In this document: positions 18,338 through 60,600 of the stretch, piece after piece | How positions within the stretch are numbered: position 1 is the first letter of the stretch | How the letters are laid out: each line of letters opens with the position of its first letter | From: a phage | DNA: 64,000 bases | Reading direction: 5' to 3' (one strand) | NCBI GenBank assembly: GCA_024613925.1 | Contig: GCA_024613925.1_4713.1 | Notes under the pieces: generated by a model | What the model saw: only the letters and a program-made list of their open reading frames with translations | Told to the model about the DNA's origin: nothing | Databases searched by the model: none | Made by a program: the position numbers and the translations under genes

Positions 18338-18437
18338 TAGAACTCCTCGTTGGAATAACGATTTAGAGGAACTGGAAGGGTCTAGAACGCGATAAACGAT
18401 TTAATCCAGGCAAACCCCAGGTTAAACTTTTCTAAGC

Positions 18438-18449: not shown

Positions 18450-18463
18450 TCTAGAACGTTGAA

Positions 18464-27779: not shown

Positions 27780-28685
27780 TTATGCTACATATAACGTTAG
27801 ATAACCATCGATGAGCGTATTCATCACACTAAGTTGAAGTACGACGGCTTTACTAACATCCGTACGCACGCCAAACGGTAGTGTTTTGAATTGCTCTGGA
27901 TCGGCTATTACTCTCGCATTCTGCAAGTTGAGTGGTCCAGGCATTGCTGACAGTACCCAGCGATCGTTGACCGTAAGACCGTCGATCTCTTCAGAGAGAC
28001 CCAATTGCAGCATGTTCATTTCTGCAATTAGTGCCTCCGATTGCGTATCACCTGAGGTTAACGTATAACCATCGGTAAGTGATGCCAGAACACCAGCAGA
28101 TACGAACCAGTTGTACGAAACAATAGCGCCTGGGAGTTTACTGCTATCTCGATCGATGATATAATTCAACCCAGCCAACATATTGTTGCGAACGAGGTTG
28201 TTGAGGTCGTTATGTCCTGAGGTTAACTCAACAAGTAACTGACCAACCCATACTTGGTTACCGGGTTTAGGTGTTATCACAACCTGTATCGGTGACTTGG
28301 ACTTATCCAGATCCGCGTCGACAATCTCGGTTTTGTTGAGAAGGATACCGTACGTCGATGCTAAGACAGGTAGGATCTCAGAAACCTTGGTTAATGCATC
28401 TAAGGTTTCGATCTCGATAGGCCAGCGGTGCTGTCCGCCAGACCAAGTACCCAGTTTACCAAGATCGATGCGGTTATAATAGATGTCGACAGAGTTCACC
28501 AGCCCTGAACCCGGTTGGGGATGCACGGTTAACTTGCTGTTACGCTTGTACCCTGTGCTTTCAGAAGCCTCACCGATAACCAGTTTATCCAGCGTTACGC
28601 CTCGAGCATCGAAATCGCTATGCTTTCGAATCAGCCGAAAGAGGATTTCTTTCGATTCTAACCCTAGGATTTCACTGTACTCCAT
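27780..28685 (-). CDS. paralog family A member (P3)
   Basis: 301 aa; motifs YKRNSKLTVHP, IYYNRIDLG, LPVLASTYGILL, DRWVLSAM shared with P1, P5 and P6. Confidence 0.55.
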   Translation of the reverse strand: MEYSEILGLESKEILFRLIRKHSDFDARGVTLDKLVIGEASESTGYKRNSKLTVHPQPGSGLVNSVDIYYNRIDLGKLGTWSGGQHRWPIEIETLDALTKVSEILPVLASTYGILLNKTEIVDADLDKSKSPIQVVITPKPGNQVWVGQLLVELTSGHNDLNNLVRNNMLAGLNYIIDRDSSKLPGAIVSYNWFVSAGVLASLTDGYTLTSGDTQSEALIAEMNMLQLGLSEEIDGLTVNDRWVLSAMPGPLNLQNARVIADPEQFKTLPFGVRTDVSKAVVLQLSVMNTLIDGYLTLYVA

Positions 28686-31458: not shown

Positions 31459-33939
31459 TTAAACGTCCTCGATAGGCAAAGGTTTAACAATCAAACGATT
31501 GAGCGGATTCGATAGACGCATACTGATAGGCTTATACGCAACATGATTCGTCTCACTTAGAGCCACTGATCTGAAACGACCGTTCAACTGTTTGTAAATC
31601 GGTTCTATCCAGAGACCTCGAAGATCACGTTTACGGAAACGTTGTTCGAACGGTTTGATTGGGGTTACGGTTAACCCACGCAACGACTCTGACGGCAGAC
31701 GTTCACGAAGGTCGCGTGGTGCCCGACCTGGGAACGGCGCAAGCCACAAACCGTCGAGCGGATTTTTACGGAAACGCAACGAGACAGGATCGCTAATGAC
31801 TTGTGCCCAATATTGCGTACTGAATCGAACGGTTTGGGTGTTCTCGTAACCACTACAATCACACCAGGTTGGTTTCGGAGGCGCTTCCAAACTTTCAACC
31901 GCCGATTCACGCCAGTTCGTCATCGGGTTGTTATCATGTACAAATTTGATAACTTCCGTAGCCTGGTTATCCGTATCATGAACGTTTGCTTGCGCCCAGT
32001 CTTCCCACAGTTCTTCACTACCGCTTACTAAACTCGAGCCAAGACGGATGGCAATCTTGTTTAGCGGTTTGATTGGATCGCTGTTGATTGTCTGGATAAA
32101 ATGGATGGTGTAACTACTCAATGTCTTAAGCAGCTGCAGCATTCCGTATTGAATATCCTTAAGACTGGTGACATCTTCCAAATCTTGACCGGTGGCCTTT
32201 GTGAAGATATCGAGAGCCAGAATTCCCGCCTCTTCTTGACTGATTGCGTCAAGCTCCCAATCCATCGATAAGAACCATTCCTTGTAGAGCTGTCCAATAC
32301 CGAAGTCGACACCAACATCCATGTAGAAGTTTTCAACGATTGCTTCAGCCATGCCTCGAGCTTGATAATGTTCCTGGAGCTGATACATGAACTGATGGCG
32401 ACGCCAACCCTGGTAAATCTCGGTAACGGCGCTCAGAAACTCTTCAGTACTGACGACCGCACGCAGCGTCACTTGCTTATCCAAACACCACCAGATCAGT
32501 TTATCGGGAATGATAGCAGGATCGGTAATGCTACGGAGATGGTCGAATGTCGGTAGCGTTAATACCCTGACGTGGTTAGCATGGATCTTAGGTACTTCAA
32601 TCAGCGTCATACCCATCGAATAGTTCAGCAAATACAAGAACAGCTTGTATGCATCTTTCATCGACATCGTCATGGTATCACCCGTCACCGGGTTGGTTGT
32701 TGTCAACCGTGACTGATACATGCCTATCGCGCTAAGATGAATCCATTCGTTCAGCAGGAAATCATACTTAGGATACAATTCACTGTCTGTAAGGTCTTCC
32801 GCTTCACTTTCCAACACCTTGGTCGTTAAGGTATTGTTGTCGTGCATCGACATCTTCTCTATCGTGCGGTTAAGCTCGGTATAATACTCCGCTTCGTTAT
32901 CCCGCGCTAGAGGGAACTGTTGTTGCATCACGGTAGTGACCTTACGTCTTACCGTGCCATTACCGACGATCTCTTGAAGGTTAAGCGGTTTACGCTCCAT
33001 GTAAACTGTGGGTTTTAACGTCTGAGGTATCTCGGAAGCGTCTTGTTTGATCGAGAACGCACCGATTGGAATCCCACGATCGGTTAATACCTTTTGAATG
33101 AGCTTATCGTAGTTTTCCGTTCTGCCCATGTTTCTTTCAATGTAAGCGATGTTACGATAGAACCAGAGCATTTGGGATTCGGTCATGTATCGCTTGAATC
33201 GATCAAGACCTTGATGGCTTGCCAGATAACTCCAGATATGGAAGCTATGGGCATAATGGGTATGACAGTTTTCCCAACGAATACCTTTTATCATCTCAGG
33301 TATTTGTGTGAATAGGATGGCGTATAGCGCAGGCCAATGAAGCATATCGACGCTCTCATATGCCGGATGTTCCCAGCGTCTGAAGTAATCGTCGATTTCT
33401 TGCTGTAAACGTGGAATAAGATTGGCCTCGCGCGACTCAACCTCTTGTGTATCGTACCAGAGAATCTCATGATTGCGTGCCGCAATTGCTTTCTCGATAT
33501 CGATGGGGTTAAGGATACCCAAGATCAACATACGTTGTTCCGGGTACCGCGCAATTAAACGATTGAAATAATCTCCACCATACGCGTATTCCCTTGCTGT
33601 CATGCGATGCCGTAACATGTTTTCCTTGGTGAACTCGATCTCTTCGAGCGTATCCAGGGAATTTACGGTCATCATTGTCTGACAAGGATGATACTCGCCA
33701 GCGAGATTCATGTAGTATAACCACGTGCGTGGGTCGTCCCCGACGGCCATCTGGTAGACTTCGGAAACCTTGAGGTTTAACCGTTCTGCCGTGATGTCGC
33801 TTTTAATAATCAGGGTGTCCGTTAGACGCTGCACGCTTTCCGAATAAAGCTGATAGTCAGTGTTGGACACGATCGGTCCTCCAAGGAGCCAGTGTAAATG
33901 AACGATATAAATAAAGGGCGCGTCGCCCTCGAACGTCAA
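31459..33939 (-). CDS. large hypothetical protein with basic C-terminal tandem motifs
   Basis: 826-aa ORF; C-terminal RFRKNPLDGLWLAP ... RFRKRDLRGLWIEP ... NGRFRS; the N-terminal 14 codons overlap the divergent gene 33898..36807, so the true start is probably internal. Confidence 0.5.
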   Translation of the reverse strand: MTFEGDAPFIYIVHLHWLLGGPIVSNTDYQLYSESVQRLTDTLIIKSDITAERLNLKVSEVYQMAVGDDPRTWLYYMNLAGEYHPCQTMMTVNSLDTLEEIEFTKENMLRHRMTAREYAYGGDYFNRLIARYPEQRMLILGILNPIDIEKAIAARNHEILWYDTQEVESREANLIPRLQQEIDDYFRRWEHPAYESVDMLHWPALYAILFTQIPEMIKGIRWENCHTHYAHSFHIWSYLASHQGLDRFKRYMTESQMLWFYRNIAYIERNMGRTENYDKLIQKVLTDRGIPIGAFSIKQDASEIPQTLKPTVYMERKPLNLQEIVGNGTVRRKVTTVMQQQFPLARDNEAEYYTELNRTIEKMSMHDNNTLTTKVLESEAEDLTDSELYPKYDFLLNEWIHLSAIGMYQSRLTTTNPVTGDTMTMSMKDAYKLFLYLLNYSMGMTLIEVPKIHANHVRVLTLPTFDHLRSITDPAIIPDKLIWWCLDKQVTLRAVVSTEEFLSAVTEIYQGWRRHQFMYQLQEHYQARGMAEAIVENFYMDVGVDFGIGQLYKEWFLSMDWELDAISQEEAGILALDIFTKATGQDLEDVTSLKDIQYGMLQLLKTLSSYTIHFIQTINSDPIKPLNKIAIRLGSSLVSGSEELWEDWAQANVHDTDNQATEVIKFVHDNNPMTNWRESAVESLEAPPKPTWCDCSGYENTQTVRFSTQYWAQVISDPVSLRFRKNPLDGLWLAPFPGRAPRDLRERLPSESLRGLTVTPIKPFEQRFRKRDLRGLWIEPIYKQLNGRFRSVALSETNHVAYKPISMRLSNPLNRLIVKPLPIEDV

Positions 33940-36807
33940 ATGAGTAATAATGACGTTGCGAAGGCACTCATGAACAAATTTGTCGCTCCTGCTCCGCAGT
34001 CACGTCTTTATAATACACGTGATGCGGAAGGAGCGAACGGTCGTTTCGGGTTAGTTGTTCCCGACCAAATGACGATGAACACGGTTACGCGTGCGACCGC
34101 GACAAACATCGAGGATAATAAAAACATCCTCGAGTTGTTCCCTGAACTTAAACGCGTGATGCAGATCTATGTTGCCGCGTTGACGAACCCTAACGATCTT
34201 AAGACGGTCGAGATGTTTATCGACAGCGAAGATTTCCCCGGCAGAGTCGCAGAAATCGTTCAGCCGATGATCGATACCATCGACACGCATTTTAAGAATA
34301 TCTATAAAATAAAGACGCTTATCCCTCGTATCATCGAAGACGTCTTCTTTATCAAGGGCAGTTATAACTTCGTTGTTCTGCCAGAAAGCACGCTCGACCG
34401 CGCCATTAATGGTAACGGTCAACTGAAACTTGAAGAATACGGATTTAAAGACAACCATTTTGCAAGTTGGGGGCTTCTAGGTAACGACAGTCGCAAACGC
34501 CACGAAAATCAATTACCTGCGACGGTTTCGATGGAAGATTATTTCTCAGGCGTTAATGAAACCATACCGTACGATCCTGTTGTTCGCATAGACAGCATTA
34601 AGTTTACCAATACCCTGCTTCGTGATAAGGACGGTAAATTCATTGAAGCGAAGATCGATATTCCGGATATGGTTACGGTTGTCGATAACCCAGACATCCT
34701 CCGCATGCCTATTCTACATCAACGTCGAGCAGCGACCGCGGTACAACGTGCGTTACGTGCGAACACGTTAGGTGGTAGTGGTTTGGTAACACTGTCAGGT
34801 GACCCAACCCTAACCGCTAACCGACGTGAGCTGACGCAAGAACAGGTTAACGAGATCTGGAATAAACTCAACATCCAGCGCCACACCAAGGTATCGCCCG
34901 TTTACGCGCTGGCAACCCCAGATACACTCGATCGTCAAAGCGTCGGTCATCCTGGTGTGATGCATGTACCACCTGAGGCATTAGAACCCGTACATGCGCC
35001 CGGTGATCCTGAGAACCATATCGGGTATTTGGTTCAGTTGGATGAGTTTGGTTATCCAGTACGTTTGGTTGAAGATGCAGCGTATTACAAGCAGTTGGAA
35101 GGTCGGTTGTCGAAGATCACCGCGGATATCGCAGGGACTTCAAGCAACGGCATGGCGAGCGAGATGATTGGTGCAGCCAAGAACATGATCCAAGGTACGT
35201 CATGTAATCAGGTAGACATGTCGGCCTTCGTATCGTCGTACGAATCGCTGATGCAACGTTACATCGTTGAACGTATTGTCAACGGTTATCTTGGCAGTGC
35301 GGTGGAAATCGGCGCGACATCATCGTTTTATCTGTCGATGCTTGCCCGTAGCCTCGCTCACAAGCAGACCCGTGTTTTGTTTATTCCTCGAGAGATGGTG
35401 ACTTACATCGCCTATGAATACAACAAATACGGTATCGGTCGTTCGCTGCTTGAAAGTACGAAGATGATCTCGTCGCAACGAGCCATGCTCATGGTTCAAG
35501 AACTGATGGCGAAAATCAAAAGTTCGTTGAACTATACGACGTTAAGCGTAATGCTTGAAGACACCGACAGAAACCCGGTCGATACCGTCGAACAAGCGCT
35601 GCATAGTTTCGCTCGCGTCTACCAGTCTGGTTTCCCGTTGGGTGAAACTAACCCAATGGATATCATCAACGCGTACGAACGAAGCTCGATTCGATTGAAG
35701 GTTGAGGGGAATAACCCACGCTTCCCGAAATTGAATACAGATGTCAGCGTTGAGCAGCGTAACTATCAGTCTCCTGATAATGAATTGATGGATCGTTATC
35801 GTCGTGACCATTTCATGGGCTTGGGTGTGTCTCCGGAGATTATCGATACTTCCTACCAATCTGAATTCGCAGCTTCTGTGATTACAGCTAACGCGATGCA
35901 AGAGAAACAGTTCACGGTTTGTCGTGAGGTGATCACGAATGGGTTATCGGACCACATCAAGAAATATACGGCATACAGTCCCGTGTTGTTGACGTCGTTA
36001 CGAAACACGGTTCGTGCGAACATGTCTAAGCTCTCCCAGGCACAATTGAAGCAGCTTTTTGGTAGCGATTTCGAAAACGGTGTTATCCGTAACGTTAACG
36101 CCTATCAGGAGATTGACGACCAATCAGCAACAATGGATCTGGATTACACTAAACCAGAAGTCCAGGAAGTTATTGCCGATGCTTATGTGTCCATGTTCTT
36201 AAACAGCCTGCGTGTGCGTTTACCGGATAGCAATGCTCGTCGCCTTGAAGATCAGGTACGTGAATATAATCAGTACAAGGAAGCGATTACTGCGCAACTT
36301 GATGATTATTTAACGCCTGATTACGTCATGGGTCTGGGTGGGGTTGATGAAACAACGCTGCAGATGATCCGCGCATGCATTATTGGTACCGCGATGCGTA
36401 CGTGGGCAAAAGAGAACAACTTCAATCAGGAGCTGGCTGATCTCTTCAGTCTTGACGATAAGAAGAATGCCGTGCAAGATTGGAAACGTATGTCCATGGA
36501 ACATATTGAAGTCATGGGTAAATGCATGGGTGATTTTGCATTGTATATTCAGAATCTGACGAAGAAGATTGAAGAGAAGATGGGAGCTCAAGCACAGGAC
36601 GGCAGCGTTTCATCTGACGGTTCGTGGTCATCCGATTCAAGTAGCGATACCGGTTCTTCTGATGACTTCGGTGGCGGTGACGATTTCGGAGATACCGATT
36701 TCGATACCGAAACGATGGAGGAAACCTCAACAGAAGAAACAACCACATCTGAGGAAACGACTACCAACACAACGTCAGAAGACGACACTTCAGGTGACAT
36801 TGTCTAA
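33898..36807 (+). CDS. large hypothetical protein with acidic Ser/Thr/Asp/Glu-rich C-terminal tail
   Basis: 969-aa ORF; last about 70 aa are low complexity (SSDGSWSSDSSSDTGSSDDFGGGDDFGDTDFDTE...); candidate virion protein. Confidence 0.5.
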   Translation: MNDINKGRVALERQMSNNDVAKALMNKFVAPAPQSRLYNTRDAEGANGRFGLVVPDQMTMNTVTRATATNIEDNKNILELFPELKRVMQIYVAALTNPNDLKTVEMFIDSEDFPGRVAEIVQPMIDTIDTHFKNIYKIKTLIPRIIEDVFFIKGSYNFVVLPESTLDRAINGNGQLKLEEYGFKDNHFASWGLLGNDSRKRHENQLPATVSMEDYFSGVNETIPYDPVVRIDSIKFTNTLLRDKDGKFIEAKIDIPDMVTVVDNPDILRMPILHQRRAATAVQRALRANTLGGSGLVTLSGDPTLTANRRELTQEQVNEIWNKLNIQRHTKVSPVYALATPDTLDRQSVGHPGVMHVPPEALEPVHAPGDPENHIGYLVQLDEFGYPVRLVEDAAYYKQLEGRLSKITADIAGTSSNGMASEMIGAAKNMIQGTSCNQVDMSAFVSSYESLMQRYIVERIVNGYLGSAVEIGATSSFYLSMLARSLAHKQTRVLFIPREMVTYIAYEYNKYGIGRSLLESTKMISSQRAMLMVQELMAKIKSSLNYTTLSVMLEDTDRNPVDTVEQALHSFARVYQSGFPLGETNPMDIINAYERSSIRLKVEGNNPRFPKLNTDVSVEQRNYQSPDNELMDRYRRDHFMGLGVSPEIIDTSYQSEFAASVITANAMQEKQFTVCREVITNGLSDHIKKYTAYSPVLLTSLRNTVRANMSKLSQAQLKQLFGSDFENGVIRNVNAYQEIDDQSATMDLDYTKPEVQEVIADAYVSMFLNSLRVRLPDSNARRLEDQVREYNQYKEAITAQLDDYLTPDYVMGLGGVDETTLQMIRACIIGTAMRTWAKENNFNQELADLFSLDDKKNAVQDWKRMSMEHIEVMGKCMGDFALYIQNLTKKIEEKMGAQAQDGSVSSDGSWSSDSSSDTGSSDDFGGGDDFGDTDFDTETMEETSTEETTTSEETTTNTTSEDDTSGDIV

Positions 36808-36837: not shown

Positions 36838-36872
36838 CCTTCTCCCCAACCCGATGAGGGAAGGGGAGAAGG
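36838..36872. terminator. CCTCC/GGAGG-arm hairpin between convergent genes (probably bidirectional terminator)
   Basis: ccttctcccc-aacccgatgagggaa-ggggagaagg with A8 upstream and a T-rich run downstream. Confidence 0.6.
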
Positions 36873-36889: not shown

Positions 36890-37165
36890 TTATTTCGAGG
36901 TTAACCACGATTCAATTGTGGTGAGTTTGCTTCTCAGTACGCGCCAACTAGGGTGTGGTGGGATCACAGCGCCTTTGTCGATTACGGTTAGCTGAACCTG
37001 GTACTTCTGTTGCATACGTGCTACCGTGTCGCTTATCGAGAGGAAAAGCTGGTAACGTTCATATGCCGTCAGTTCACTGTCCTGTTGAACTGCGTTGGCC
37101 GCTAACGTAATTTCGCGTAAGTCCTTTGCATCCACAGAGACGGTAATGAGTTTATATTGACTCAT
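36890..37165 (-). CDS. hypothetical protein
   Basis: 91-aa ORF, co-oriented with the downstream large genes. Confidence 0.4.
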   Translation of the reverse strand: MSQYKLITVSVDAKDLREITLAANAVQQDSELTAYERYQLFLSISDTVARMQQKYQVQLTVIDKGAVIPPHPSWRVLRSKLTTIESWLTSK

Positions 37166-43299: not shown

Positions 43300-43329
43300 C
43301 CTCCCCCAACCCTTACGGGCTGAGGGAGG
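43300..43329 (-). terminator. intrinsic terminator: perfect 13-bp stem with GUAA tetraloop on the minus strand
   Basis: minus reading CCUCCCUCAGCCC-GUAA-GGGUUGGGGGAGG followed by UUUCUAUGCCGUUU; about 100 nt after the stop of 43429..45651. Confidence 0.75.
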
Positions 43330-43428
43330 CTGACTTATGTATCACGGTGCCGGATGAATGTCCGGTGCAATGAAACCATCCGCAACGTTGTCGTCAAGAA
43401 TATCGTCCAACGAAGCAGCTACGGTAGT

Positions 43429-45651
43429 TCAGTTAGTCTGAACAGGCAGCTTGATGTTTTCAGTGTAGACCTTACGCAGGTTCACAACGTTAATCAGACC
43501 CAGCAGCGGGCAGTTGTTAACGAAGCGGCAGCGCGGCTGAACCATGGTTTCTTTAGAAACCTGACCGTTACGGGTAACCTGAGCAACAGATACCAGTTCC
43601 GGTACGTACAGGAACATACCGAAGGTCAGCGGATCCGGAGAACCCTGGATACCACGAGACAGGGTCACGAAGATCTTATCACGCAGCAGGACGTTCGGGT
43701 TATCTACAACCACGAAGTTGAAGCTTACACCAACGGTACGGAAATCACCATCGGTCTGCAGGAACTGCGGGATGTAGTTGTCAGTTGCTACTACGCAACG
43801 CGGTTTCTCATCAGCGTTGGAAGACAGCAGCTGCAGAGCTGGCTGATAACCAGACTCGGAGTACATGCGATATGCCATCTCACGAATCACGTTCATGATC
43901 GCAGCGGACACTTCAGCACGACGTTCTGCAGTGGTGGTACCCTGAACAGATTTCTCCAGGTCCAGATTGATTTCTTCGAACCACGGACGGATCAGGTAAC
44001 GACCGAAACCTTCGATCTGGATGTCGCCGAACTGACGGAAGCGAGAGGTCGCAACCGCTTTCAGTGCGTCTTTGTAGCTGAACAGTTTCTCAACCATCAG
44101 GTTGTCGAAACGTGCGTTAGCAGCTTGGATCAGAACGTCCAGGTCGGCAGCGTTTTCTTCCCAATCCAGCGGACGAGGAATGGAGAACGGAGCCAGCAGG
44201 CCGATTGCGTAACGTTCTTGCTTCATGTTGAAGTCAAGGTGCTTACCGCGTTCACGACGGTTGCTGTTGTTACGACGGATACGCAGTTCGTAACCAACCA
44301 GTTTGAAGCTCAGGTCTTCAGCCAGTTGTTTGAACTCTTCGCTCTTACGCGGTTGTTCGATGTTGTCCTGATCAACCAGGCGATACAGTTCAGCGTTAGC
44401 GCCGTTAACACGCAGACCGGCTTTCTCTACGTTGGAAGAACCGTAAACTTCGATTGCCAGCTGAGCAGCGGATTTCGAATCGATGATGTCCTGCAGCGCT
44501 TCAGCTCGTGCACCTTTAACGTCAACGGTGTGCTCATCAACGAAGATGGAGTGGGTGTCGAACGCCAGGGTCATTTTGCGGAAGTCGCCTTCCAGGGATT
44601 TCTGGAAACCGTTGGTGATCAGACCAGATACGTCGAACGGTACGTAAGAGGTTTTGCTGTGCTTGGTAGATTTGATTTCCACCAGGATTTTGGTCAGCGT
44701 GATCTGGGCGTCCAGCGCATCGGTGTTGTCGCTGTAACCGTTAGCCAGGATGCTATCGTCTTCAGCAATACCGATCATGTCGATCAGTTTATCAACAGCC
44801 AGGTAAGACGTTTTATAAGTTACGCCTTTAATTTCGATGTTGCGCGGAGCAACGATAGCTTTGTCAACGAAGTACTGCGCGTTGGCATCGTCAGCACGAT
44901 AGATCGGATGCAGATCGGTCACGTCGTTGGACAGAACGTCGTTGTACATGAACGCATCCAGCAGCGGACGACGTACCCAATCAGCCGGAGTACCGTCAGC
45001 GTTACGACGCAGGTGGTTGAACACCAGCGGACGACGGAAAGATACGTCGTAACCGATCTGGTTCGGAGCCAGAACGATGGTGTTATACAGTTCGTTACCC
45101 ATGCGGCTCAGACGAGAAGCCTTCACGTTGAACACAACGGAGTACGGCATCATGTCACGCAGTTCTTTCTGGTCGTAAGACAGCTGAACCAGTTCTTCAG
45201 ATTCGCAACCGCAGGAATCAGCAGCCATCATGACGAAGTTAGAGCTGTCAACTTCACGGCCAGACGGAGTGGTGCTGATGTTCATGGAACGTGCTTGTTT
45301 AGCGTATTCCACCGGGTTACCATGAGCCAGCATGATCAGTGCTGCTGCACGAGCCTGCTGTGCGTTCATGGTGAACAGCTGTTCTTCAATACGCTGCTTC
45401 TCTTCCGGAGTGGTGGTTTCGAAGCCCAGCATGGACAGAACCGGTTCTTCTGCTTTACGGATGTCGCTGCTGAAGCTCTTAACATCCATTTCGTTAACCA
45501 GTTTGTCCATGGATTTGAAATCAACCTTAGAAGCAGATTCCATAGACAGGAAGGTGTTCTCCAGACCTTTGTCTGCTGGTTTGCTACCATTAGCGGTCAG
45601 GAACTGGCGAGTGGCCGCGACCTGTTGGCTAAGAAGGGTTTTATCATTCAT
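43429..45651 (-). CDS. major virion structural protein (major capsid protein-like; tail sheath not excluded)
   Basis: 740 aa, a size typical of giant-phage major capsid proteins; the whole gene lacks TTA, CTA and TCA codons (hence the 766-codon antisense ORF), indicating strong expression bias; flanked by a strong terminator. Confidence 0.45.
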   Translation of the reverse strand: MNDKTLLSQQVAATRQFLTANGSKPADKGLENTFLSMESASKVDFKSMDKLVNEMDVKSFSSDIRKAEEPVLSMLGFETTTPEEKQRIEEQLFTMNAQQARAAALIMLAHGNPVEYAKQARSMNISTTPSGREVDSSNFVMMAADSCGCESEELVQLSYDQKELRDMMPYSVVFNVKASRLSRMGNELYNTIVLAPNQIGYDVSFRRPLVFNHLRRNADGTPADWVRRPLLDAFMYNDVLSNDVTDLHPIYRADDANAQYFVDKAIVAPRNIEIKGVTYKTSYLAVDKLIDMIGIAEDDSILANGYSDNTDALDAQITLTKILVEIKSTKHSKTSYVPFDVSGLITNGFQKSLEGDFRKMTLAFDTHSIFVDEHTVDVKGARAEALQDIIDSKSAAQLAIEVYGSSNVEKAGLRVNGANAELYRLVDQDNIEQPRKSEEFKQLAEDLSFKLVGYELRIRRNNSNRRERGKHLDFNMKQERYAIGLLAPFSIPRPLDWEENAADLDVLIQAANARFDNLMVEKLFSYKDALKAVATSRFRQFGDIQIEGFGRYLIRPWFEEINLDLEKSVQGTTTAERRAEVSAAIMNVIREMAYRMYSESGYQPALQLLSSNADEKPRCVVATDNYIPQFLQTDGDFRTVGVSFNFVVVDNPNVLLRDKIFVTLSRGIQGSPDPLTFGMFLYVPELVSVAQVTRNGQVSKETMVQPRCRFVNNCPLLGLINVVNLRKVYTENIKLPVQTN

Positions 45652-45800
45652 TGAAAGTATCCTTTACAGAATTAACTTATATAAGTCGGTCGATAGACCA
45701 TAGCGTACACGCGTGCATGCGCCACTATAGTATCAGTAAACACTTACCGTTATTGAGGTCGTGATACAACACTAAAAATGCCGCATAACTTTTCCCTACG

Positions 45801-46421
45801 TCACAAACGACGCAGGCGATAATGGATGGAACGATTGGTGCAATATGAACGGAACAGCGGCAATTGCGCAACTTCCGCAAGACTCATATTAATTCGCAGG
45901 TGTTCAATAACGGCGCTGTAGTTATCAGCAATACGATCGCTCAATAACTCTTCTGCCAATAAAGGAAGACAATCGACAACAATCGCGATCACATCCTCAT
46001 TAACATAACGCACCCGAACACTCAACGGACGTTTGTCTGGGCTGTAAGTTGGATCCGCCAAACGACGTTCAATATCACGTGGATAGCTCGTCAGTAAATG
46101 GTAATAACCATTGTCATAACGATTGATGTACTCACACAGCACATCAACATTCTTCTCTGGCGGCAAACCTGTTTCGTCATAGTGATACGCAAACATACCA
46201 CCAAGCAGGTTGTTAAGATGAACCGCAGGGTTCGCTTGTTCGTGTTCTTTCGTGATGAAGAAAGGCACGTTCTGGGCTGCGAAATAAAAACCTACATCAT
46301 TGGGCGATAGTATGCCGAAAAGACTTTTAGGGTCTAATAACACCTGTAAGTCATCACGCGCATTTCGAATAATCGCGTGTTCTACCCAATTCGGAACGAC
46401 GAGATATCGGAGTTCCTTCAT
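45801..46421 (-). CDS. hypothetical protein
   Basis: 206-aa ORF immediately upstream (in transcription order) of the major structural gene. Confidence 0.45.
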   Translation of the reverse strand: MKELRYLVVPNWVEHAIIRNARDDLQVLLDPKSLFGILSPNDVGFYFAAQNVPFFITKEHEQANPAVHLNNLLGGMFAYHYDETGLPPEKNVDVLCEYINRYDNGYYHLLTSYPRDIERRLADPTYSPDKRPLSVRVRYVNEDVIAIVVDCLPLLAEELLSDRIADNYSAVIEHLRINMSLAEVAQLPLFRSYCTNRSIHYRLRRL

Positions 46422-48071
46422 TATGATTACCTCTTTGCAAGTATCGAAAGGATTGAGTCGATGGACCCAAAACAGATAGCCATTAAGATTATTACGTTAC
46501 TGTTTCGTAATGCACAATTGAACCATCCCGATCCCAGTACGATCGAACATGTTAAATCCGTCTTAGATAAAGTCGAACCCCCGAAAAACCATCTCGCTAC
46601 GGACGTAGATAGAGAGGTTTTCAACAACCTGATGAATACCATTCATTGGATGTTGGAACAACCATTATCGGAACCTTTCGATAAACAACAGTTGTTACAA
46701 AGGATACGTTTAGATTGCCTTGAACAAAGCAACCTTTACGAGATTCTTGCCGACGGACTGTACGATATCGAAGACGACGCTCATATCAGTAAGGTCTGTT
46801 CACTCTATTACAACGAATTACGTAATCTGGTTACCCGCCGTCGTGTTTTCGAAACCTTTAGAAACACGTACATGGATATCAGTAACGGGCGACTTGGGGA
46901 TAAAGAATTTTTCGATGCGATGGCGAATTTGAAATTATCGCTAGACAGTATCGAAATGGATACCGAAAATCCCGAAGAGATGGCGTGTATGATTGACGGC
47001 TTTATCGCCGACAGCGAAGACGATATCGAGAAAGTTGAACGTATGTTCGTCAAAGCGATGGAACGTAACAGTCCTGAAGGTGGATTTGTAACCGGCTGGC
47101 AAGGCTTTAATAAAATGTTGGGGTCGGTCGGCGTTTTACGTCGCGGTACCTTAGGACTGATTGGTGCAATGCAGCACCGGAACAAGTCAGGTGTGTTGTT
47201 AAAACTGTTCACGCATCTGGCACTGTACAATAAACCCCATTTCTTTTTTCCGGAGCGAGCAAAGAAAGCATTACTGATTCATTTGTCGACAGAAAACGAA
47301 GTGGAAGAAAACACGCTTCAAATATACAAGAACATGCGAGAACAGGAAACAGGCGAATATGTCGATATTCGTAAGATTGACCCTCGCGAGGCATCACGTT
47401 ATGTGTTGAAGGTGTTCAATGATGCGGGTTTCTCTGTTTGTATGCGTCGTGTTGATGGGATGAGTTATAAACAACTCGCTAATCTCATCGACCATTTCGA
47501 ACGCATGGGTTATGAAGTCATGGCATTGTTCATTGACTATCTGAAAATGTTCTCATCGGAAGGGCTGGATAGAAATGGACCGACCGGCGCATGGCTCCAA
47601 GAACTCTTCAACAAAGTACGTAACCTCTGCAGCGTTAAACGTATTTTAGGTATGACCGTACACCAGCTGTCATCCGACGCGAAGATGCGTGCACGTGACG
47701 GTAACGATGAAGAGTTTGTTGACCAAGTCGCAGGTTTAAGTTACTGGGATGGTTGTAAAGGGATTGACCGTGAGATTGACCTTGAAGTGATTGTTGATAT
47801 CGTTAAGGAACCGGGCAAACGTCAAAGCTGGCAAGTCTTTGCATTAGGGAAAGACCGTCAACCGGATAACGGTTCAACGAAACCTGAAGACAAACATTTC
47901 GCGATGCCATTCCAAACCATCGGGATGCTTCCTGATGATTACGGTAAGAAAGCGGTATATTGCCGCAAGGTTGGCGGACAACCTGTCTCCGAGGGAGGTA
48001 AAGGTCCGTGGAACAAGTTCGATGAAAACGCAGCACCGAGTAATGAATTACAATTTGATTTAGAATTTTAA
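46377..48071 (+). CDS. DnaB-family helicase-like protein with a variant P-loop
   Basis: VTGWQGFNKMLGSVG...LGLIGAMQHRNKSGVL aligns to the DnaB H1 region (VTG...LIIVAARPSMGKT) but has N where the glycine before the lysine is expected; VMALFIDYLKMF matches the DnaB Walker B box LIVIDYLQLM; likely true start MDPKQIAIKI (about 46453). Confidence 0.45.
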   Translation: MFYPIRNDEISEFLHYDYLFASIERIESMDPKQIAIKIITLLFRNAQLNHPDPSTIEHVKSVLDKVEPPKNHLATDVDREVFNNLMNTIHWMLEQPLSEPFDKQQLLQRIRLDCLEQSNLYEILADGLYDIEDDAHISKVCSLYYNELRNLVTRRRVFETFRNTYMDISNGRLGDKEFFDAMANLKLSLDSIEMDTENPEEMACMIDGFIADSEDDIEKVERMFVKAMERNSPEGGFVTGWQGFNKMLGSVGVLRRGTLGLIGAMQHRNKSGVLLKLFTHLALYNKPHFFFPERAKKALLIHLSTENEVEENTLQIYKNMREQETGEYVDIRKIDPREASRYVLKVFNDAGFSVCMRRVDGMSYKQLANLIDHFERMGYEVMALFIDYLKMFSSEGLDRNGPTGAWLQELFNKVRNLCSVKRILGMTVHQLSSDAKMRARDGNDEEFVDQVAGLSYWDGCKGIDREIDLEVIVDIVKEPGKRQSWQVFALGKDRQPDNGSTKPEDKHFAMPFQTIGMLPDDYGKKAVYCRKVGGQPVSEGGKGPWNKFDENAAPSNELQFDLEF

Positions 48072-48096: not shown

Positions 48097-48128
48097 CCCT
48101 CCTCCAACCCGTAAGGGAAGGAGGAGGG
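48097..48128. terminator. CCTCC/GGAGG-arm hairpin between convergent genes (probably bidirectional terminator)
   Basis: ccctcctcc-aacccgtaagggaa-ggaggaggg with A9 tract upstream. Confidence 0.6.
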
Positions 48129-48144: not shown

Positions 48145-48471
48145 TTAACTTATTGTCATGAATTCATTAGGTGAAAATTTCCAGCCGTTCTCAGTGAGAA
48201 GCGTGTTGAGTTTCGCCGCAACGATAAGCCATGCGTGCATGGCTGTTACATCGTATTGGCGATTCACTCGACGTTGGTTTTCGATATTGATTTGCTCCTG
48301 TTCAGTGATGTTTGGATAAAGTGCGATAGCGCTAGGTTTACCCAGCGCGCTAGTCATCACCGCCGTACATTCACTGATAATGTTGTTTAAGTGGTAGTTA
48401 TACACCGTTCCACGCATGACGCGATGACGGCATTCGATAATAGCGTCGTAAATGATTTCTCGAGTAATCAT
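48145..48471 (-). CDS. hypothetical protein
   Basis: 108-aa ORF. Confidence 0.4.
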   Translation of the reverse strand: MITREIIYDAIIECRHRVMRGTVYNYHLNNIISECTAVMTSALGKPSAIALYPNITEQEQINIENQRRVNRQYDVTAMHAWLIVAAKLNTLLTENGWKFSPNEFMTIS

Positions 48472-49519: not shown

Positions 49520-49834
49520 CGTATTTTACCTTTCTATGTTAGGTGGGTTGCGGATAGAAGAATCAATGCATAGATTGATCGTTCTTTGTTAGAAATTATT
49601 GCCGAACCGGTTATGGTTATATGGTTGGTAGTACGCCATAGGCTCCGGTTTAGGGATTTCCATGGTCGGATTTTTGGAATTGATTGCCATCACGTAAATT
49701 GTTACGGGCGATACCGCGTGATTCATTTCGACGGCCACACGGTTGTTTGATCGATTGTTCAACTGGTACTGATTACGATTGGTTGATAACAGTAGAGCTA
49801 CTGCCTAAAACTCTACCGTTGTTTAGATACCGTA

Positions 49835-50695
49835 TTAGGATATACGGTGCATCGTCGGTGCGATTGGTCGTTGACCAAGGTAGAATGTATATCTCGGACG
49901 ATTTTTCGGTGCCTGGTTCGGTTGAGGATTCTTCGAATCGATAGCTAACACGTAGTACTGAAGTGTGGGGTTGAGTGTCGTCAGATAGTTTCTGATGAAC
50001 TCCTCGTTTAAACTTTCAGTCGGGGTTAGTATGTGCCCGTTGATTGTAACGACGGTACCATCGGAACGTATTTCACGAACAATGCACCAAGCCCCCGCAC
50101 CAACATCGGTAGGAATAGTCGTGCTGGGAGTAATGGTTAGATATTTATCGAAGAATTCGCAACAAAGAGGATGCATGTAGACCGTTACGGTATCATCTCC
50201 TGGCGAGGTTCTCTCTTTTGTTACAGGATCCTTCGTCGGTACAAATGTGTTAATTTTGGCTACCTTATCAGCATCTTCGTTCGCTTCGATATAAATCTCT
50301 GCTTTACCATGTACGCTCTGAGCTATACGACGTAACTGTTCGTATGTTTTCGGTGAGGTTAGCTGTACCCGACTGAGCAGCTCATCGTACCAAGCTTCGA
50401 AGGTGCTTGTTGGTATCTTAACGTATGCCTTATTTCCGGTTTCATTTTCATCCCGGAAGATAATCGCAACGGTATCAGGCTCATCAAGAGAATCCAGGTA
50501 AACAATGTGTTCGACCAACGCAGAAAACGTTTTACGTCCGGTTCCTCCATAGTACGGGTTTGCTGAATGAACCAGCCGCCAGTTACATGAAGTTTGGATA
50601 TGATCGAAGGCGTTGATCATGTTTTTACTGTAACGAAAAATTTCAGTAAAATATTCTTTACGTTCTTTACTAAGACGTTTGTATATCTTGGTCAT
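49835..50695 (-). CDS. paralog family B member
   Basis: 286 aa; C-terminal half (YMHPLCCEFFDKYLTI ... GAGAWCIVREIRSDGTVVTINGH ... LNEEFI) matches 50749..51549. Confidence 0.5.
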   Translation of the reverse strand: MTKIYKRLSKERKEYFTEIFRYSKNMINAFDHIQTSCNWRLVHSANPYYGGTGRKTFSALVEHIVYLDSLDEPDTVAIIFRDENETGNKAYVKIPTSTFEAWYDELLSRVQLTSPKTYEQLRRIAQSVHGKAEIYIEANEDADKVAKINTFVPTKDPVTKERTSPGDDTVTVYMHPLCCEFFDKYLTITPSTTIPTDVGAGAWCIVREIRSDGTVVTINGHILTPTESLNEEFIRNYLTTLNPTLQYYVLAIDSKNPQPNQAPKNRPRYTFYLGQRPIAPTMHRIS

Positions 50696-50748
50696 TTTTG
50701 TAGCTCCTTGATTAAAGTAAGGATGGATACGATTATTTATTATCGCTT

Positions 50749-51549
50749 TTAGTTTTTACCATTCCCCCAGCAGGGTTCTTCGTAAAAATGGTGCGGATAG
50801 CGATAATGAGAATTATTGGGTCTTCCTGTCGTTTCTTTCTGTGAGTCGACGACTAACGCGTAAAATAATTGGTGCTTGTCCATCATCGAAAAGTAAGAGG
50901 CAAGCAGTTTTTCGTTTAACGCGTCGCATGGTCGACAGGTACGACCACAAAGCGTTACGATACGGCCGTCAGGATAAACTTCACGGATCGTTCGCCATTC
51001 ACCGATACCAACCGGCGATGGTGCTGATGTGCCGCCCGCTATCGTTAAATATCGGTCGTACGTAGTACGGCATTCGGGATGAACGTAAATTGGCTGGGTA
51101 TTAGTACTGTCGTTTTCGGTTTGATGTTTACTCACGTATACCTCAAGGTAGATCGTTGGTAATCCGATTAGAACGCCGGTATCACGACGTTTTTTGGTAA
51201 TCCGAGGACGGATACTATCGAGCACGCTTTCCAGTTTTTCTGCGACTTCGTCAGCCGGTAATATATACCAGTATTGTGGTTCTGGGTCATCACCATGACT
51301 GAATAAGATACGACAGTCGGTGCTATTATTTTCTTCTACTTCAGGCGGGAAGATGATGGTGTGAACCGTATGACGTTCTGCGATATAAAATCCTTCGGGT
51401 CCCTCAGTTTTGGTAAGTGTAAAGGACCAGGGTGAACAATCTTCAGGTGATAAGCCTGCTAGGAAAAAGTTCGTCCGGATTGGCGCGTCCCATTTCGTGA
51501 TCATGTTAGCGTGACCAATAACACCTAACTTTTGATAAATATCTGTCAT
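50749..51549 (-). CDS. paralog family B member
   Basis: start set at ATG of MTDIYQKLGV (51549) because the track ORF (to 51675) runs through promoter copy D and into the terminator hairpin; YVHPECRTTYDRYLTI ... GIGEWRTIREVYPDGRIVTLCG ... LNEKLL. Confidence 0.5.
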   Translation of the reverse strand: MTDIYQKLGVIGHANMITKWDAPIRTNFFLAGLSPEDCSPWSFTLTKTEGPEGFYIAERHTVHTIIFPPEVEENNSTDCRILFSHGDDPEPQYWYILPADEVAEKLESVLDSIRPRITKKRRDTGVLIGLPTIYLEVYVSKHQTENDSTNTQPIYVHPECRTTYDRYLTIAGGTSAPSPVGIGEWRTIREVYPDGRIVTLCGRTCRPCDALNEKLLASYFSMMDKHQLFYALVVDSQKETTGRPNNSHYRYPHHFYEEPCWGNGKN

Positions 51550-51604
51550 GATTGTATCCTCGATTATTAAGAGAAATTTACAATGATAACAGTAACCGCT
51601 GTTA

Positions 51605-51629
51605 TCACCTAGGTAATGTAGTCGTGAAA
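51605..51629 (-). promoter_or_regulatory. conserved promoter-like motif, copy D (minus reading TTTCACGACTACATTACCTAGGTGA)
   Basis: near-identical to copies A, B and C; about 64 nt upstream of the ATG at 51549. Confidence 0.5.
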
Positions 51630-51664
51630 TAAACTGGGGTAATGCGAAATAAGACAGCATAGAA

Positions 51665-51696
51665 CCCTCTCCCAACCCGTAAGGGAAGGGAGAGGG
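51665..51696 (-). terminator. intrinsic terminator, CCTCC/GGAGG-arm hairpin family
   Basis: ccctctccc-aacccgtaagggaa-gggagaggg; 6 nt after the stop of 51703..52434; minus strand continues TTCTATGCTGTCTTATTTCG. Confidence 0.65.
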
Positions 51697-51702
51697 AATA
51701 TA

Positions 51703-52434
51703 TCACCAATGATCGAAGGAACCAGGAGTGTTACGAACGATCTCAACTTGGAAGGTTATTGGTACTGATGGCAATGAAACATATTCGCGTTGCGATAGCG
51801 GGACGTTGTCTTCTCGCTCATCGATGCGAGCAGAACCTGTCAGAAATTGGAACATAGCGACTTGAAGCTCATCGGTGAAACGGAGGTACTCACCGATGTG
51901 TGGTGTTGCATCATATCGAATAAGTACGTTGCCAAACCGTCGTGCGATATTTGGAGTATCTGTGAACGAAACAGGGAAATCCAAAGTCATTCCCATCGTT
52001 TCACCTGGCTTCATTTTCCGAATCGACGCAATTGGCACGTCGAAGATATTCCATTCTTCTTTCATCGTGTCTGGAAACACACCGCGATACAAGATGGTCT
52101 TTTGATGACGATGAACGGGTTGTAAACGGTCAACCAATATTTTCAAAGGTTTAAGTTCTTCAGCCAATTCATAATCTGCTTGGATGTTCCACTTTGCCGC
52201 AAGTTCCATTAGGTTGGGATACGCGCTATATTTATTGACGATAGCCCAGTTAACATTACGCAAATCAATAGGAAGGAATTTGATAATTTCCTTGTTGAAT
52301 ATCCATTGGTTTAATTTCTTAATCTCCGAAAGCATGATGTACTCACTACAGCTAAACGGTTGGACGAACGGTGTTGTCTTTTTCTGGTGCAAGCCATAAC
52401 GTGACCGTACCATGGCATGTCCACTGTGGTTCAC
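51703..52434 (-). CDS. hypothetical protein
   Basis: 243-aa ORF; true start probably internal (MLSEIKKLNQ, about 52335), which removes the overlap with the upstream gene. Confidence 0.45.
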   Translation of the reverse strand: MNHSGHAMVRSRYGLHQKKTTPFVQPFSCSEYIMLSEIKKLNQWIFNKEIIKFLPIDLRNVNWAIVNKYSAYPNLMELAAKWNIQADYELAEELKPLKILVDRLQPVHRHQKTILYRGVFPDTMKEEWNIFDVPIASIRKMKPGETMGMTLDFPVSFTDTPNIARRFGNVLIRYDATPHIGEYLRFTDELQVAMFQFLTGSARIDEREDNVPLSQREYVSLPSVPITFQVEIVRNTPGSFDHW

Positions 52435-57619: not shown

Positions 57620-57641
57620 AGCCCACCCCGAAGGGCGGGCT
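57620..57641 (-). terminator. GC-rich hairpin after the 1128-aa gene (possible terminator)
   Basis: agcccaccc-cgaa-gggcgggct (8 of 9 bp); weak U-run on either strand. Confidence 0.4.
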
Positions 57642-57656: not shown

Positions 57657-60600
57657 TTACTTGTAGGCACCGCAATGGGCTTTGATGAGGAAAAGCACCG
57701 CTTGCATCGGTTTATTGAACTGTTGCCATAACGTCAATGCCGGATGGAACAACCAATCTTCCAGGCCAAGAACAATGCCGTAGTTAATGACATTATTAAC
57801 ATCGTTCTCAATGTTGAATTCGCTATCCAGGAATTTATCGATTGAACGCAGGGTCTGCATGGCGTTGTCAGCAATAAGCCAAGCTTCATGCGCTTCACGA
57901 GCCGCACGCAGCACTGCCTCCAGTTCGCTGATAGTAGCTACCGGTAATTCCTCACTGGTGAGGTCGTCAGAAACCGTAAACTGGCGATTGATACCGGTGT
58001 AGATCCACTGCATCAGTTTCGCTGCTTCCTCGTTCGGGTTGTTACGCGTTGTCGCATAAGTCGCGCTCACCTTCACGATGTGCGTTTCACCAAGATACGC
58101 TTTGGAACCAACGCCTTTACGATCGCTGTTTTTCCACGGTTGTACGGTAGCGACCATGAGCTTGTCCCATTTCTGAATAGGAATACGCTTCAGACCAACA
58201 ACCGATCCAGCGGATGTTTCGGACTGGTTGCTCTTCCGCACTTCGCTGAGTTCACGATCGATAGCAACGATTAATTCACGCGTCATGTTACCAAGCATTT
58301 TGATTTCACCCAACGCAGCGATGAGCTTCTTCACATCGGTAACAGGTTCACCACCGATGGTAAGATGACGGATGAAACGTTTCAGAATAATCCGTTCCGC
58401 TGCTGGGTTACCGCGACGCGCTTTAGCCAATGCTTGCTGCGTTTCGGCGAACAGCTTATCCCATGGAGCCGTAGCGGCGGTATAGTAACGGTGGTTGGTT
58501 TCAATCCAGTTACCGATACGGTTGACCGCACTCTTAACGGTATCCATGAATCCTTCCATCGCAATTTCGGTAGCTTCGACGTTACCCTGGAAGTTATCAG
58601 GACCGATCTCACGTGCCGCTACCAGAATACCTTCCACAGCACTCACCGCATGGCGACCGATAGCCAGATTTCGCTGCGCTTCTTCAGCTCGCTCAACGAA
58701 TTCCACCACCGCAGGATCATCAACGATTTCCGCCTCAGCAACAACACGTGTACCGGCATCGCCTTCCAGCGTCTCGATCGTTACAACAGGATCGTTTTCA
58801 CCAGCAACATCCTGGTACTCTTCCTGTTTAAGATCACCGTTATCTGCCGCAGCGATAGCGTTCATTATGCGGATGGTGACCTCACCAAGTTCTTGCGAAA
58901 CGAATCCATAAACGGTGCAAGCAGTCGTTGCGAAGTTCATCAATGTGCGCGTACGCTGCGTGATGTAACGTGCGCCGGATTCGTTTTCCAGTTTATCGAG
59001 ATCCCGGATTAACTGCTCGGCTGTTTCTTGAAGCTGTGTTACCGCCTTCAAGAGATCTTCGTCGAACAGTTTCTTCGATGCATCAACTAACATATCAGCA
59101 TTGACGTTGGATGGTACCGTATCGCCTTGCTGTTTCATCTCGCTCAGCTCATCGCGGAACTTACGGATACCTTCTAAAGCGTCGTCAACGGAATATCCGA
59201 ATGCCTTAACGCCCGCCATTCCGAGAGCTGCTTTCATATCGCCAGGATGTTGAACTTGCTCGCCTTCCTTGCTGTTCTTTAACTCATCGAAATATTGACG
59301 TGATGCGTCCGCAATACGCTTGCTGTCTTTTACTGCGTTAACGATCTTATCAACCGATTTCGAATCGTTTGCAAGTAACGTGTCAAGCTTGTTCCATGCA
59401 ACATCAACTTTCTTCCCGTTGTTAGCCTCGCCCGGCGGTGGAAGCAGCTTCATCACTGGTGTTGTGCGTTGTTCTTTGGTGAGCTTACCAGCTTTCTCTT
59501 CGATTTTCTTTTTATTAACACCGAAAAGTTTTCTTAGGCGCGCCACGATGGCTTTTAAGAACTTCACAACCGCTTCGTAAACCGACTTCAGAATCTGTTT
59601 AAAGCGACCGGGTTTCTTGTCACCGTCTTCCAGATTAAGATCGCTGTTCAGTGCGACATCAAGCTGTTTGTACGATTCCATGATGTATTCGTCTTTGATT
59701 TCAGGACGAATCTCGAAGCTTTCCATCGGACCTTCAGCCGGACGGAATTCCATTTTCAGTTCGCCTTGCAGAGTAGGGTCGACGATGGCGATTGCTTCAC
59801 CCTGACCATCAGCGTTAAAGCGTTCAGCGTAACGAGTACGGCGAACAATAACGCTCTTATCCCCATCAAGACGACGTACCACCATGGTACCAGGAATGTA
59901 TGGTTGTTCTGTTTCAATGACGGTTACATCTGCCTCACCTTCACCGAGAATAACAGATGCGCGCTGCTCAACAACAGGAACATCTAACACACCACGGGCT
60001 TCCAGCTCTTGATGAATTTCGAACGACTCTTGTTTCAGATCTTCATCTTCTTCGTTTTCGTCGTCCTCATCATCGTCACCTTCGGTGTTTTCATCACCCT
60101 CGGTGGTTGTGTCGTCGGTGGCACCAGCGTCAGCGTCGGTGTTAGCAGGTTCTTCGGACGCAGGTTCGGTGGTGTTGTCCTCCGTGGACGACCCGTCAGT
60201 GTTATCGACATCAACATCACCTTGCAGTTCTGTTTCCTGAGCAACTGCTTCGGCTTTCTGCTCACCGGTATTACCGTCATTAGCGTCGACAACAGGTTGT
60301 TCGTCAGCGACGGTATCTTCAACCTTTTCTACTTTCTCCACGACACGTTTAATCACGGTGACTTTGATGGGTTCTTCCGTTGTTTTGGTTTCTGGCGTCA
60401 CCTCGGCTGCCGCAGCCGCTGTTTCAGCAATAGGTTCTGCTTTTTCCGGTTCGACGACATTACCCTTAACACCTTCGGTGGTTTCTGCAGGTTGCGCTGC
60501 CTGTTCGATTTGTGCCGGATTGGTTGGATCGATGGCATTAGCCGCATCCTGAATCTTGTTCTTCAGATTGTCGCGGTCAGCGCTAACGGTTGGGTCATTG

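Follow-up and report, generated by a model that had tools for sequence, protein, structure and literature searches.

Near-identical two-tier hairpins behind the genes of a Goslar-related jumbo phage as probable members of a conserved chimallivirus terminator class

What function do about ten hairpins of near-identical sequence serve in the DNA of a single phage, and why do the copies resemble each other so closely? The question arises from a hairpin at positions 43300..43329 of a 64,000-nucleotide stretch of phage DNA (contig GCA_024613925.1_4713.1), the whole of which is referred to here as the window. An earlier note had regarded this hairpin and its relatives as terminators and, on the premise that terminators are normally idiosyncratic, had taken their near-identity as a sign of selection on the sequence itself, for example through a dedicated RNA-binding or antitermination factor.

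Over a 12-kb piece, the window shares 98 % identity with Escherichia phage vB_EcoM_Goslar, and alignment of the whole window revealed collinearity with the first 61 kb of Goslar at 93–96 % identity. Judged by this similarity, the phage is a relative of Goslar within the Chimalliviridae and thus a nucleus-forming jumbo phage of E. coli. The annotation of Goslar comprises a nuclear shell protein, the PhuZ tubulin and several fragments of multisubunit RNA polymerases (beta-like subunits); together with the 93–98 % identity to Goslar, it marks the phage of the window as nucleus-forming and equipped with multisubunit RNA polymerases of its own. Transcription of phage phiKZ proceeds without the host polymerase (PMC4666361), and the same is assumed, by analogy, for the phage studied here. 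Sigma-70-type promoter-like sites are fewer in positions 1..20000 of the window (21) than in shuffled sequences (32.5, sd 6.6), a shortage that fits independence from the host RNA polymerase and is uninformative on the hairpins. Most genes of the window are encoded on the minus strand.

All ten hairpin sequences reported by the earlier note were recovered at their positions. Seven copies (4109, 15778, 27739, 36838, 48097, 51665 and 63558) share the exact plus-strand core AACCC-N4/5-GGGAA, which has one lone further match in the window, on the minus strand within a gene at 26300. Two of them, 15778 and 63558, are identical over 32 of 32 nt. The hairpins at 11203 and 17607 are, in line with the earlier note, variants with the same arms and different centres, and 43300 is a diverged member of the family. 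All copies fold on both strands, with predicted energies of −18.5 to −31.5 kcal/mol, and the predicted fold consists of an outer stem of 9–10 bp, a 2x2 internal loop (UU/UU or AA/AA in the Goslar-type hairpin), a CCC/GGG inner helix and a loop of 4–5 nt. All ten copies possess a 5′ arm of the CCYCC(CC) type and a 3′ arm of the GGRGG type, joined by a loop of approximately 4 nt.

Chance is not a plausible source of these structures. The window contains 9 hairpins in which a C-rich pyrimidine arm of 7 nt or more is matched perfectly by its purine complement, compared with 0.1 on average and never more than 1 in 100 dinucleotide-preserving shuffles (about 90-fold excess); the whole Goslar genome contains 35 versus 0.25 in shuffles. 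Across 14 Goslar copies, pairing holds for 99.4 % of cells, and both sides change in 6 of the 12 base pairs, always from C-G to U-A; this level of covariation was reached by none of 500 shuffles. A covariance model built on the Goslar copies retrieved the seven core copies of the window on the minus strand (E = 3e-23 to 8e-17), 11203 at E = 2e-6 and, weakly, 17607 and 43300. Occurrence of the motif at similar frequency inside coding regions had been named as grounds for abandoning the terminator reading; the model gave nothing intragenic below E = 0.4 in the window, so that by this check coding sequence is free of the motif. Rfam at gathering thresholds matched no family in the whole window, and a tRNA scan returned nothing. 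A sliding-window RNAfold census at −14/−15 kcal/mol yielded hundreds of matches, was too unspecific and was used only at or below −18 kcal/mol and with context.

The location of the family relative to genes is strict. All ten copies are intergenic and lie 4–99 nt past a stop codon. In Goslar, 32–34 of 35 such hairpins fall between genes, although only 7.4 % of the genome is intergenic, and CCTCCC (18.8x) and GGAGGG are the most enriched 6-mers of this intergenic DNA. Some family hairpins are already labelled "putative transcriptional terminator" in the Goslar GenBank record.

Six of the ten copies are located between convergent genes, in agreement with the earlier claim that several are. The two-tier hairpin at 4109..4140 (−23.5/−24.6 kcal/mol; E = 7e-21) separates 3796..4104 (+) from 4158..4799 (−) and carries TATG on both sides, as CATA at 4100 for the minus strand and as TATG at 4144 for the plus strand. 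The core copy at 27739..27770 (−26.0/−30.9 kcal/mol; E = 3e-23), between 26448..27728 (+) and 27780..28685 (−), has the tails UUAUGUUUGG on the minus and TATGCTGT on the plus strand, and the plus tail contains the stop codon of the minus-strand gene. The core copy at 36838..36872 (E = 8e-17), whose outer stem measures 10 bp and whose loop measures 5 nt, is flanked by 33898..36807 (+) and 36890..37165 (−) and likewise has TATG on both sides. At 48097..48128, a core copy (E = 2e-20) between the DnaB-like helicase gene 46377..48071 (+) and 48145..48471 (−), the TATG tail is confined to the plus side. The variant at 11203..11237, with arms CCTCCTTCCC/GGGAAGGAGG around another centre (−29.6/−30.4 kcal/mol; E = 2e-6) and TATAG tails on both sides, lies between 10094..11182 (+) and 11253..11642 (−). 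The other variant, at 17607..17638, with arms CCCCTCCTC/GAGGAGGGG (−31.5/−27.4 kcal/mol) and weak tails, has on one side the endolysin gene (17702..18337, −), whose stop it follows by 63 nt, and on the other 16766..17407 (+), which it follows by 199 nt. Both variants correspond to putative terminators of the Goslar annotation.

The remaining four copies follow a minus-strand gene, and the next gene downstream is also on the minus strand. Core copies are located at 15778..15809, 14 nt past the stop of 15824..16723 (−), with the sense tail UUUAUGUUUG (E = 2e-18); at 51665..51696, 6 nt past the stop of 51703..52434 (−), with the sense tail UUCUAUGCUGUC (E = 3e-22); and at 63558..63589, 10 nt past the stop of 63600..63923 (−), with the sense tail UUUUAUGGCGUU (E = 1e-21). 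The diverged copy at 43300..43329 is found on the minus strand 99 nt past the stop of the major head protein gene 43429..45651 (−), where its transcript is predicted to form a 15-bp stem including G.U pairs, with a GUAA loop, followed by UUUCUAUGCCGU. Because of the G.U pairs this hairpin is far more stable on the sense (minus) strand (−30.0 kcal/mol) than on the plus strand (−18.5 kcal/mol), which points to selection at the RNA level.

Several other features of the window adjoin members of the family. Copy 15778 bounds an AT-rich stretch of about 790 nt (14989..15777), in which the longest ORF does not exceed 37 codons and which contains two more strong hairpins (15345..15391 and 15631..15676); its Goslar equivalent (14972..15825) is also unannotated, a comparison with Rfam produced no match, and promoters, a small RNA or an origin may reside there. 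Copy 51665 is located inside an insertion of about 2.7 kb (49621..52353) that takes the place of about 200 bp of Goslar and is also found in the related genome L055 introduced below; the Goslar counterpart of the hairpin (49776) lies in the short replaced segment. The insertion contains two minus-strand ORFs, 49835..50695 and 50749..51675, as well as part of a third, 51703..52434 (−), and PHROG searches with these three ORFs gave no match. Antisense to the major head protein gene, a 766-codon frame is open on the plus strand (43354..45654), most likely as a mirror artefact, since the annotated gene with homologs is on the minus strand. In the deposited Goslar record, the last approximately 55 nt are repeated at the start (1..55 = 237253..237307), and this overlap begins within a family hairpin; the window starts in the poly-A run directly after that hairpin.

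Beyond the stem, the family is defined by what follows it. The shared flanks claimed earlier were confirmed, with CATA within 14 nt upstream in 7 of the ten copies and TATG within 14 nt downstream in 6. The two motifs represent one element on two strands, the order in the transcript being hairpin and then (U)UUAUG. The U-rich tract that had been described for the minus strand is short and interrupted (UUUAUG, UUAUG, UUCUAUG) and nearly absent at 48097 and 17607. Sense-strand tails contain 1–6 T among their first 8 nt, with a median of about 5, compared with a canonical yardstick of at least 5 U in 8. TATG is found on the minus side in 7 of the ten copies; 11203 has TATAG and 17607 TTATAC instead, and 48097 lacks a U-rich or TATG tail on the minus strand, though a minus-strand gene ends there.

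The tail is directional. In Goslar, the 10 nt that follow the hairpin on its 3′ side include TATG in 65 % of minus-strand and 44 % of plus-strand cases, against backgrounds of 2.4 % and 1.3 %. Tallied against the annotation, the sense side carries the tail at 14 of 15 co-directional Goslar loci and the opposite (plus) side at 2 of 15, whereas at convergent loci it is found on the plus side in 13 and on the minus side in 10 of 17. The consensus of 43 Goslar tails is TATG followed by Y (86 %), Y (79 %), G (53 %) and T (47 %). The tail thus tracks incoming transcription and occurs where no gene follows, and it therefore belongs to the stop signal rather than to the promoter of the next gene.

The late promoter of phiKZ also has the core TATG (G = +1), and gp123, a beta-like subunit of the non-virion RNA polymerase, binds it on the non-template strand (PMC4666361, PMC12809450). 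The window tails share these four bases on the same strand; they differ in forming the tail of a terminator and in being present without a following gene, on both sides at convergent loci. P119L, the best-studied phiKZ late promoter, has no upstream hairpin, and promoter and terminator are for this reason taken as separate elements. A general role of the tail TATG as late promoter of the next gene was rejected on account of the two-sided tails and of P119L.

The tail could also be read by the ribosome, with the GGAGG arm serving as Shine-Dalgarno sequence, the AUG of the tail as start codon and the hairpin as a mask over the ribosome-binding site of the next gene. GGAGG is indeed positioned 5–7 nt ahead of the AUG, and with this AUG the next gene starts, probably or according to the annotation, at window locus 51665 (303 codons) and in Goslar gp047, gp111 and gp183. 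Such a role is nonetheless very improbable for the family. Most tail AUGs open frames of just 2–25 codons, for which the tail AUG as a start codon was rejected as a general role; two-sided tails occur at convergent loci, where no gene follows; and the phiKZ terminator motif has K (G or T) at the corresponding position, so that an AUG is not required (PMC10914365). At 51657..51660, the tail AUG is in frame with, and probably the start of, the 303-codon gene (start 51660), and the GGGAGAGGG arm occupies the Shine-Dalgarno place; the ribosome-binding site of this gene would accordingly lie buried in the upstream terminator.

For phiKZ, ONT-cappable-seq revealed 133 termination regions, and a motif consisting of a hairpin and then TTAT was derived from 61 predicted intrinsic terminators (PMC10914365). 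This motif, 5′-BCCYCCCCHWWDGGGRRGGBYTTATKYYGT-3′ (Putzeys et al. 2024, Microlife, PMC10914365), shares with the window hairpins the CCYCC pyrimidine 5′ arm, the GGRGG purine 3′ arm, the 4-nt loop and the tail (T)TTATG-Y-Y-G-T, and the consensus of the Goslar tails equals its end. Placement is also alike: soon after genes, including about 90–100 nt past the major head gene, and in some cases bidirectionally between convergent genes. Conversely, the Goslar-derived model detected at least 8 phiKZ terminators in 50 kb, among them one behind the phiKZ head gene. The premise of idiosyncratic terminators consequently does not hold for this phage family, for which a conserved terminator motif was already published.

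The two forms differ in that the ten window hairpins possess a longer two-tier stem (9–10 bp, 2x2 internal loop, CCC/GGG) and are much closer to one another (up to 32/32 identical). Due to the longer stem, the 30-nt phiKZ motif does not match the ten directly; it matches, with at most 4 mismatches, only a short single-tier terminator of phiKZ type outside the ten, at 57621..57640 on the minus strand just past the stop of 57657..61043 (−), which reads GCCCGCCC-UUCG-GGGUGGGC-UUUAUGCUGU. A further short terminator, at 3469..3488 on the plus strand after 2622..3461 (+), is composed of GCCTGTCC-TTCG-GGGCAGGC and then TTTTATGCTGT; it has the family tail, its arms are not segregated into purines and pyrimidines, and it is a putative terminator in the Goslar annotation.

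In phage 201phi2-1, five motifs (A–E) were described, of which motif A resembles the phiKZ motif according to the authors and co-occurring A and B form elongated hairpins; terminators with the long-stem motif were the strongest in a host terminator trap, surpassed lambda T0 and cut expression of the downstream reporter (PMC11512511). The window hairpins are likened to these by the description in that paper, and the host of 201phi2-1 is Pseudomonas chlororaphis, not E. coli. A GC-rich hairpin with a U-rich stretch just behind a gene is also what canonical intrinsic and bidirectional terminators have, and with the latter the family shares an A-rich 5′ flank that mirrors the U-rich 3′ flank, so that one hairpin serves both strands. 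The family departs from the canonical type in its strictly segregated arms and in that a short tail of fixed sequence (UAUG), whose A and G never vary, takes the place of a T run.

The terminator reading is thus supported by the position of the hairpins past stop codons and by homology to the mapped terminators of phiKZ (PMC10914365) and 201phi2-1 (PMC11512511). Very probably, the ten hairpins are hairpin-dependent (intrinsic-type) terminators and represent the form that the conserved chimallivirus terminator has taken in the Goslar lineage. By analogy with the mapped relatives, we infer that RNA 3′ ends form at the family hairpins in this phage. The shortness of the U tract, the bare minus side of 48097 and the weak tails of 17607 speak against this reading.

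Such ends could, however, also arise by processing: transcripts would be read through and then trimmed by an exonuclease or cut at the tail by an endonuclease, the stem protecting the mRNA. The great stability of the stems (−22 to −31 kcal/mol) and the shortness of the U tract would be in keeping with this, as would the outcome of a simple stem-plus-T-run scan, which listed none of the four family members in 1..20000, in part because its loop rule is intolerant of the internal loop. Goslar encodes a 3′-5′ exoribonuclease and a ribonuclease, and the 3′ ends mapped by ONT-cappable-seq in relatives could themselves be processed ends. A protective stem, on the other hand, needs no conserved downstream sequence, yet TATGYYGT is conserved and follows the direction of transcription, and the motif terminators of 201phi2-1 lower expression of a downstream reporter in the terminator trap (PMC11512511). 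Processing as the actual role of the family is therefore considered unlikely; the two roles are compatible and do not exclude each other.

The combination of hairpin and tail extends to other members of the Chimalliviridae. TATGYYG is preceded by a strong hairpin at 7 of 31 sites in the window, 33 of 172 in Goslar, 8 of 40 in phiKZ, 7 of 16 in Xanthomonas phage Xoo-sp14 and 5 of 6 in Erwinia phage Deimos-Minion, compared with 2–4 % for permuted tail cores. Salmonella phage SPFM4 displayed no enrichment of hairpin-TATGYYG (2/13 vs 6.6 %), and the module is accordingly not universal in the family. In phiKZ, Xoo-sp14 and Deimos-Minion, a terminator is situated behind the head gene, in the position of 43300. 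The arms of Xoo-sp14 and Deimos-Minion are all-purine and all-pyrimidine with the purine arm first, e.g., GAGGAGGGGC-loop-GCCCCTCCTC-TATGCCGT. Polarity is thus reversed, and what is conserved is the tail and the segregation of the arms rather than polarity or sequence; both recur in phages whose major head proteins are 25–34 % identical.

Similar structures were encountered among IMG/VR contigs. Four GC-rich contigs (L010, L014, L061 and L076) with a similar hairpin and a TTATGCTG tail were discarded, each having a single copy and no other sign of the family. An element at 7035..7058 of contig L011, found also in about 60 other contigs (L006–L101; AT-rich, marine-looking phage), reads CCCCC-UU-CCC-N4-GGG-UU-GGGGG and then GUUUUU on the transcribed strand. 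It has the same two-tier design of outer G/C stem, 2x2 UU/UU loop, CCC/GGG and tetraloop, and in L011 it comes after the major-head-protein module; since the design was imposed by the search pattern itself, nothing but its abundance is informative.

Recurrence of segregated arms in such distant phages would also be expected if the CCUCC/GGAGG helix were the binding site of a dedicated phage protein, be it an antiterminator, a factor for mRNA export or sorting at the phage nucleus, or a translational regulator, and the authors of the 201phi2-1 study speculate on antitermination (PMC11512511). The reversed polarity in Xoo-sp14 and Deimos-Minion does not agree with such a protein, and the arm sequence, the orientation of the centre and the loop vary freely between copies and strains, which argues against a sequence-specific reader of the helix. 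For the nucleus-associated RNA-binding protein ChmC, eCLIP revealed no motif, binding near start codons and nothing on terminators. As the identity within the genome is accounted for by conversion between copies (see below), a binding site of this kind appears quite improbable. The dedicated factor that the earlier note had deduced from near-identity is consequently supported in part, by the family-wide constraint, but is unnecessary to explain the data.

The near-identity itself was analysed by comparing the window with Goslar and two Goslar-like IMG/VR genomes, A (L046) and B (L055), the four being 90–98 % identical. Outer stems are nearly invariant across them, and changes concentrate in the interior. 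The loop AACA is present at three loci of the window, at two of which the other genomes have GTAA, while genome A has ATCA at two loci. At locus 93445 of Goslar, the whole hairpin differs between Goslar and genomes A and B, with 7 differences in 32 nt versus 7 in 500 nt of flank; the replacement comprises two compensatory changes per arm, and the resulting hairpin exactly reproduces another member of the family. Inversion of the centre was seen at two loci, from AA-CCC-GTAA-GGG-AA to TT-CCC-TTAC-GGG-TT with unchanged arms and flanks, namely at 48097..48128 of the window relative to genome B and at 134586 of Goslar relative to genome A. Similar small inversions of hairpin loops have been described for chloroplast non-coding DNA.

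Loop variants common to several loci of one strain and the replacement of a whole hairpin are signatures of templated exchange between copies, and the inversions of the centre are as produced by intramolecular switching in a palindrome. On the strength of these signatures, much of the near-identity within the genome is concerted evolution, by gene conversion or template switching. Its second source is a family-wide constraint on the hairpin-plus-TATGYYG module. Since exchange homogenises the copies, near-identity alone is no proof of selection on the exact sequence; of the earlier conclusion, a family-wide constraint on arms and tail is retained, whereas much of the resemblance is to be ascribed to concerted evolution.

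Exchange between copies and inverted centres are, along with the multicopy palindromic nature of the family and the copy bordering the 2.7-kb strain-specific insertion, also traits of DNA-level or selfish repeats, i.e., REP- or MITE-like palindromes, cruciforms, or recombination or replication signals without a role in transcription. Neither presence/absence polymorphism nor target-site duplication was found among the four genomes, in which 14 of 14 comparable loci keep the hairpin and the interior alone changes. The strand-specific G.U pairing at 43300, the tail following gene direction and the strict placement past stop codons, at 4–31 nt (4–99 nt for the ten copies of the window), are equally at odds with such elements, which renders this origin extremely improbable.

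Taking the hairpins as terminators, the following course of events may be proposed. At the ends of the transcription units, which the terminators would close, the nascent RNA would fold into a very stable stem with a pyrimidine 5′ arm (CCYCC) and a purine 3′ arm (GGRGG). An arm of a single base class is unable to pair with itself, so that no competing fold should arise and folding behind the polymerase should be quick; compensatory change by transitions would also preserve the segregation of the arms. Release of the RNA by the polymerase would follow within the tail U(U)UAUG-Y-Y-G-U, which is short and pairs weakly. As the hairpin reads alike on both strands, one element with two tails could stop transcription from both directions between convergent genes. 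The multisubunit RNA polymerases of the phages appear to need this type of stem and the tail in several chimallivirus lineages, and copies within a genome would be homogenised by templated exchange and occasionally flipped.

How the tail acts may be linked to the late promoters. Tentatively, and with considerable doubt, it may be suggested that the tail TATG is read as non-template DNA by the same pocket of the non-virion polymerase as the TATG core of the late promoter, and that a pause, rather than a long U tract, permits release. The sigma-like subunit being permanent in the non-virion polymerase, the elongating enzyme would pause as TATG enters the bubble. In Bacillus subtilis, NusG reportedly causes pausing and termination at a non-template TTNTTT. 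This would illustrate a possible mode, in which a short non-template element after a hairpin pauses the polymerase and aids a weak U tract, but motif and protein are different, and for the polymerases of jumbo phages it is a possible parallel only. If the suggestion were true, one four-base element would mark starts as well as stops of transcription, termination would be partly sequence-read, and it would help to explain why TATG alone defines no promoter.

Overall, the family belongs, by its sequence features, to the published chimallivirus terminator class, distinguished by a longer two-tier stem, and the initial finding is thereby largely explained. What is new is modest: the module is found outside Pseudomonas phages as well, the segregated arms may have either polarity, the tail is used directionally, and the copies evolve in concert. 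For an E. coli jumbo phage, the hairpins would provide a map of transcription-unit ends, with about 35–45 sites genome-wide and at least 12 in the window, and as compact bidirectional terminators they are candidates for E. coli constructs. They furthermore show clearly, on a small scale, how the regulatory repeats of a virulent phage evolve in concert and how their hairpins flip. With respect to the phage family, the published phiKZ terminator motif is not confined to Pseudomonas phages, the module recurring in phiKZ, Goslar and phages of Xanthomonas and Erwinia, and free polarity combined with maintained segregation of the arms reduces the range of features that have to be recognised by the phage polymerases or by a partner.
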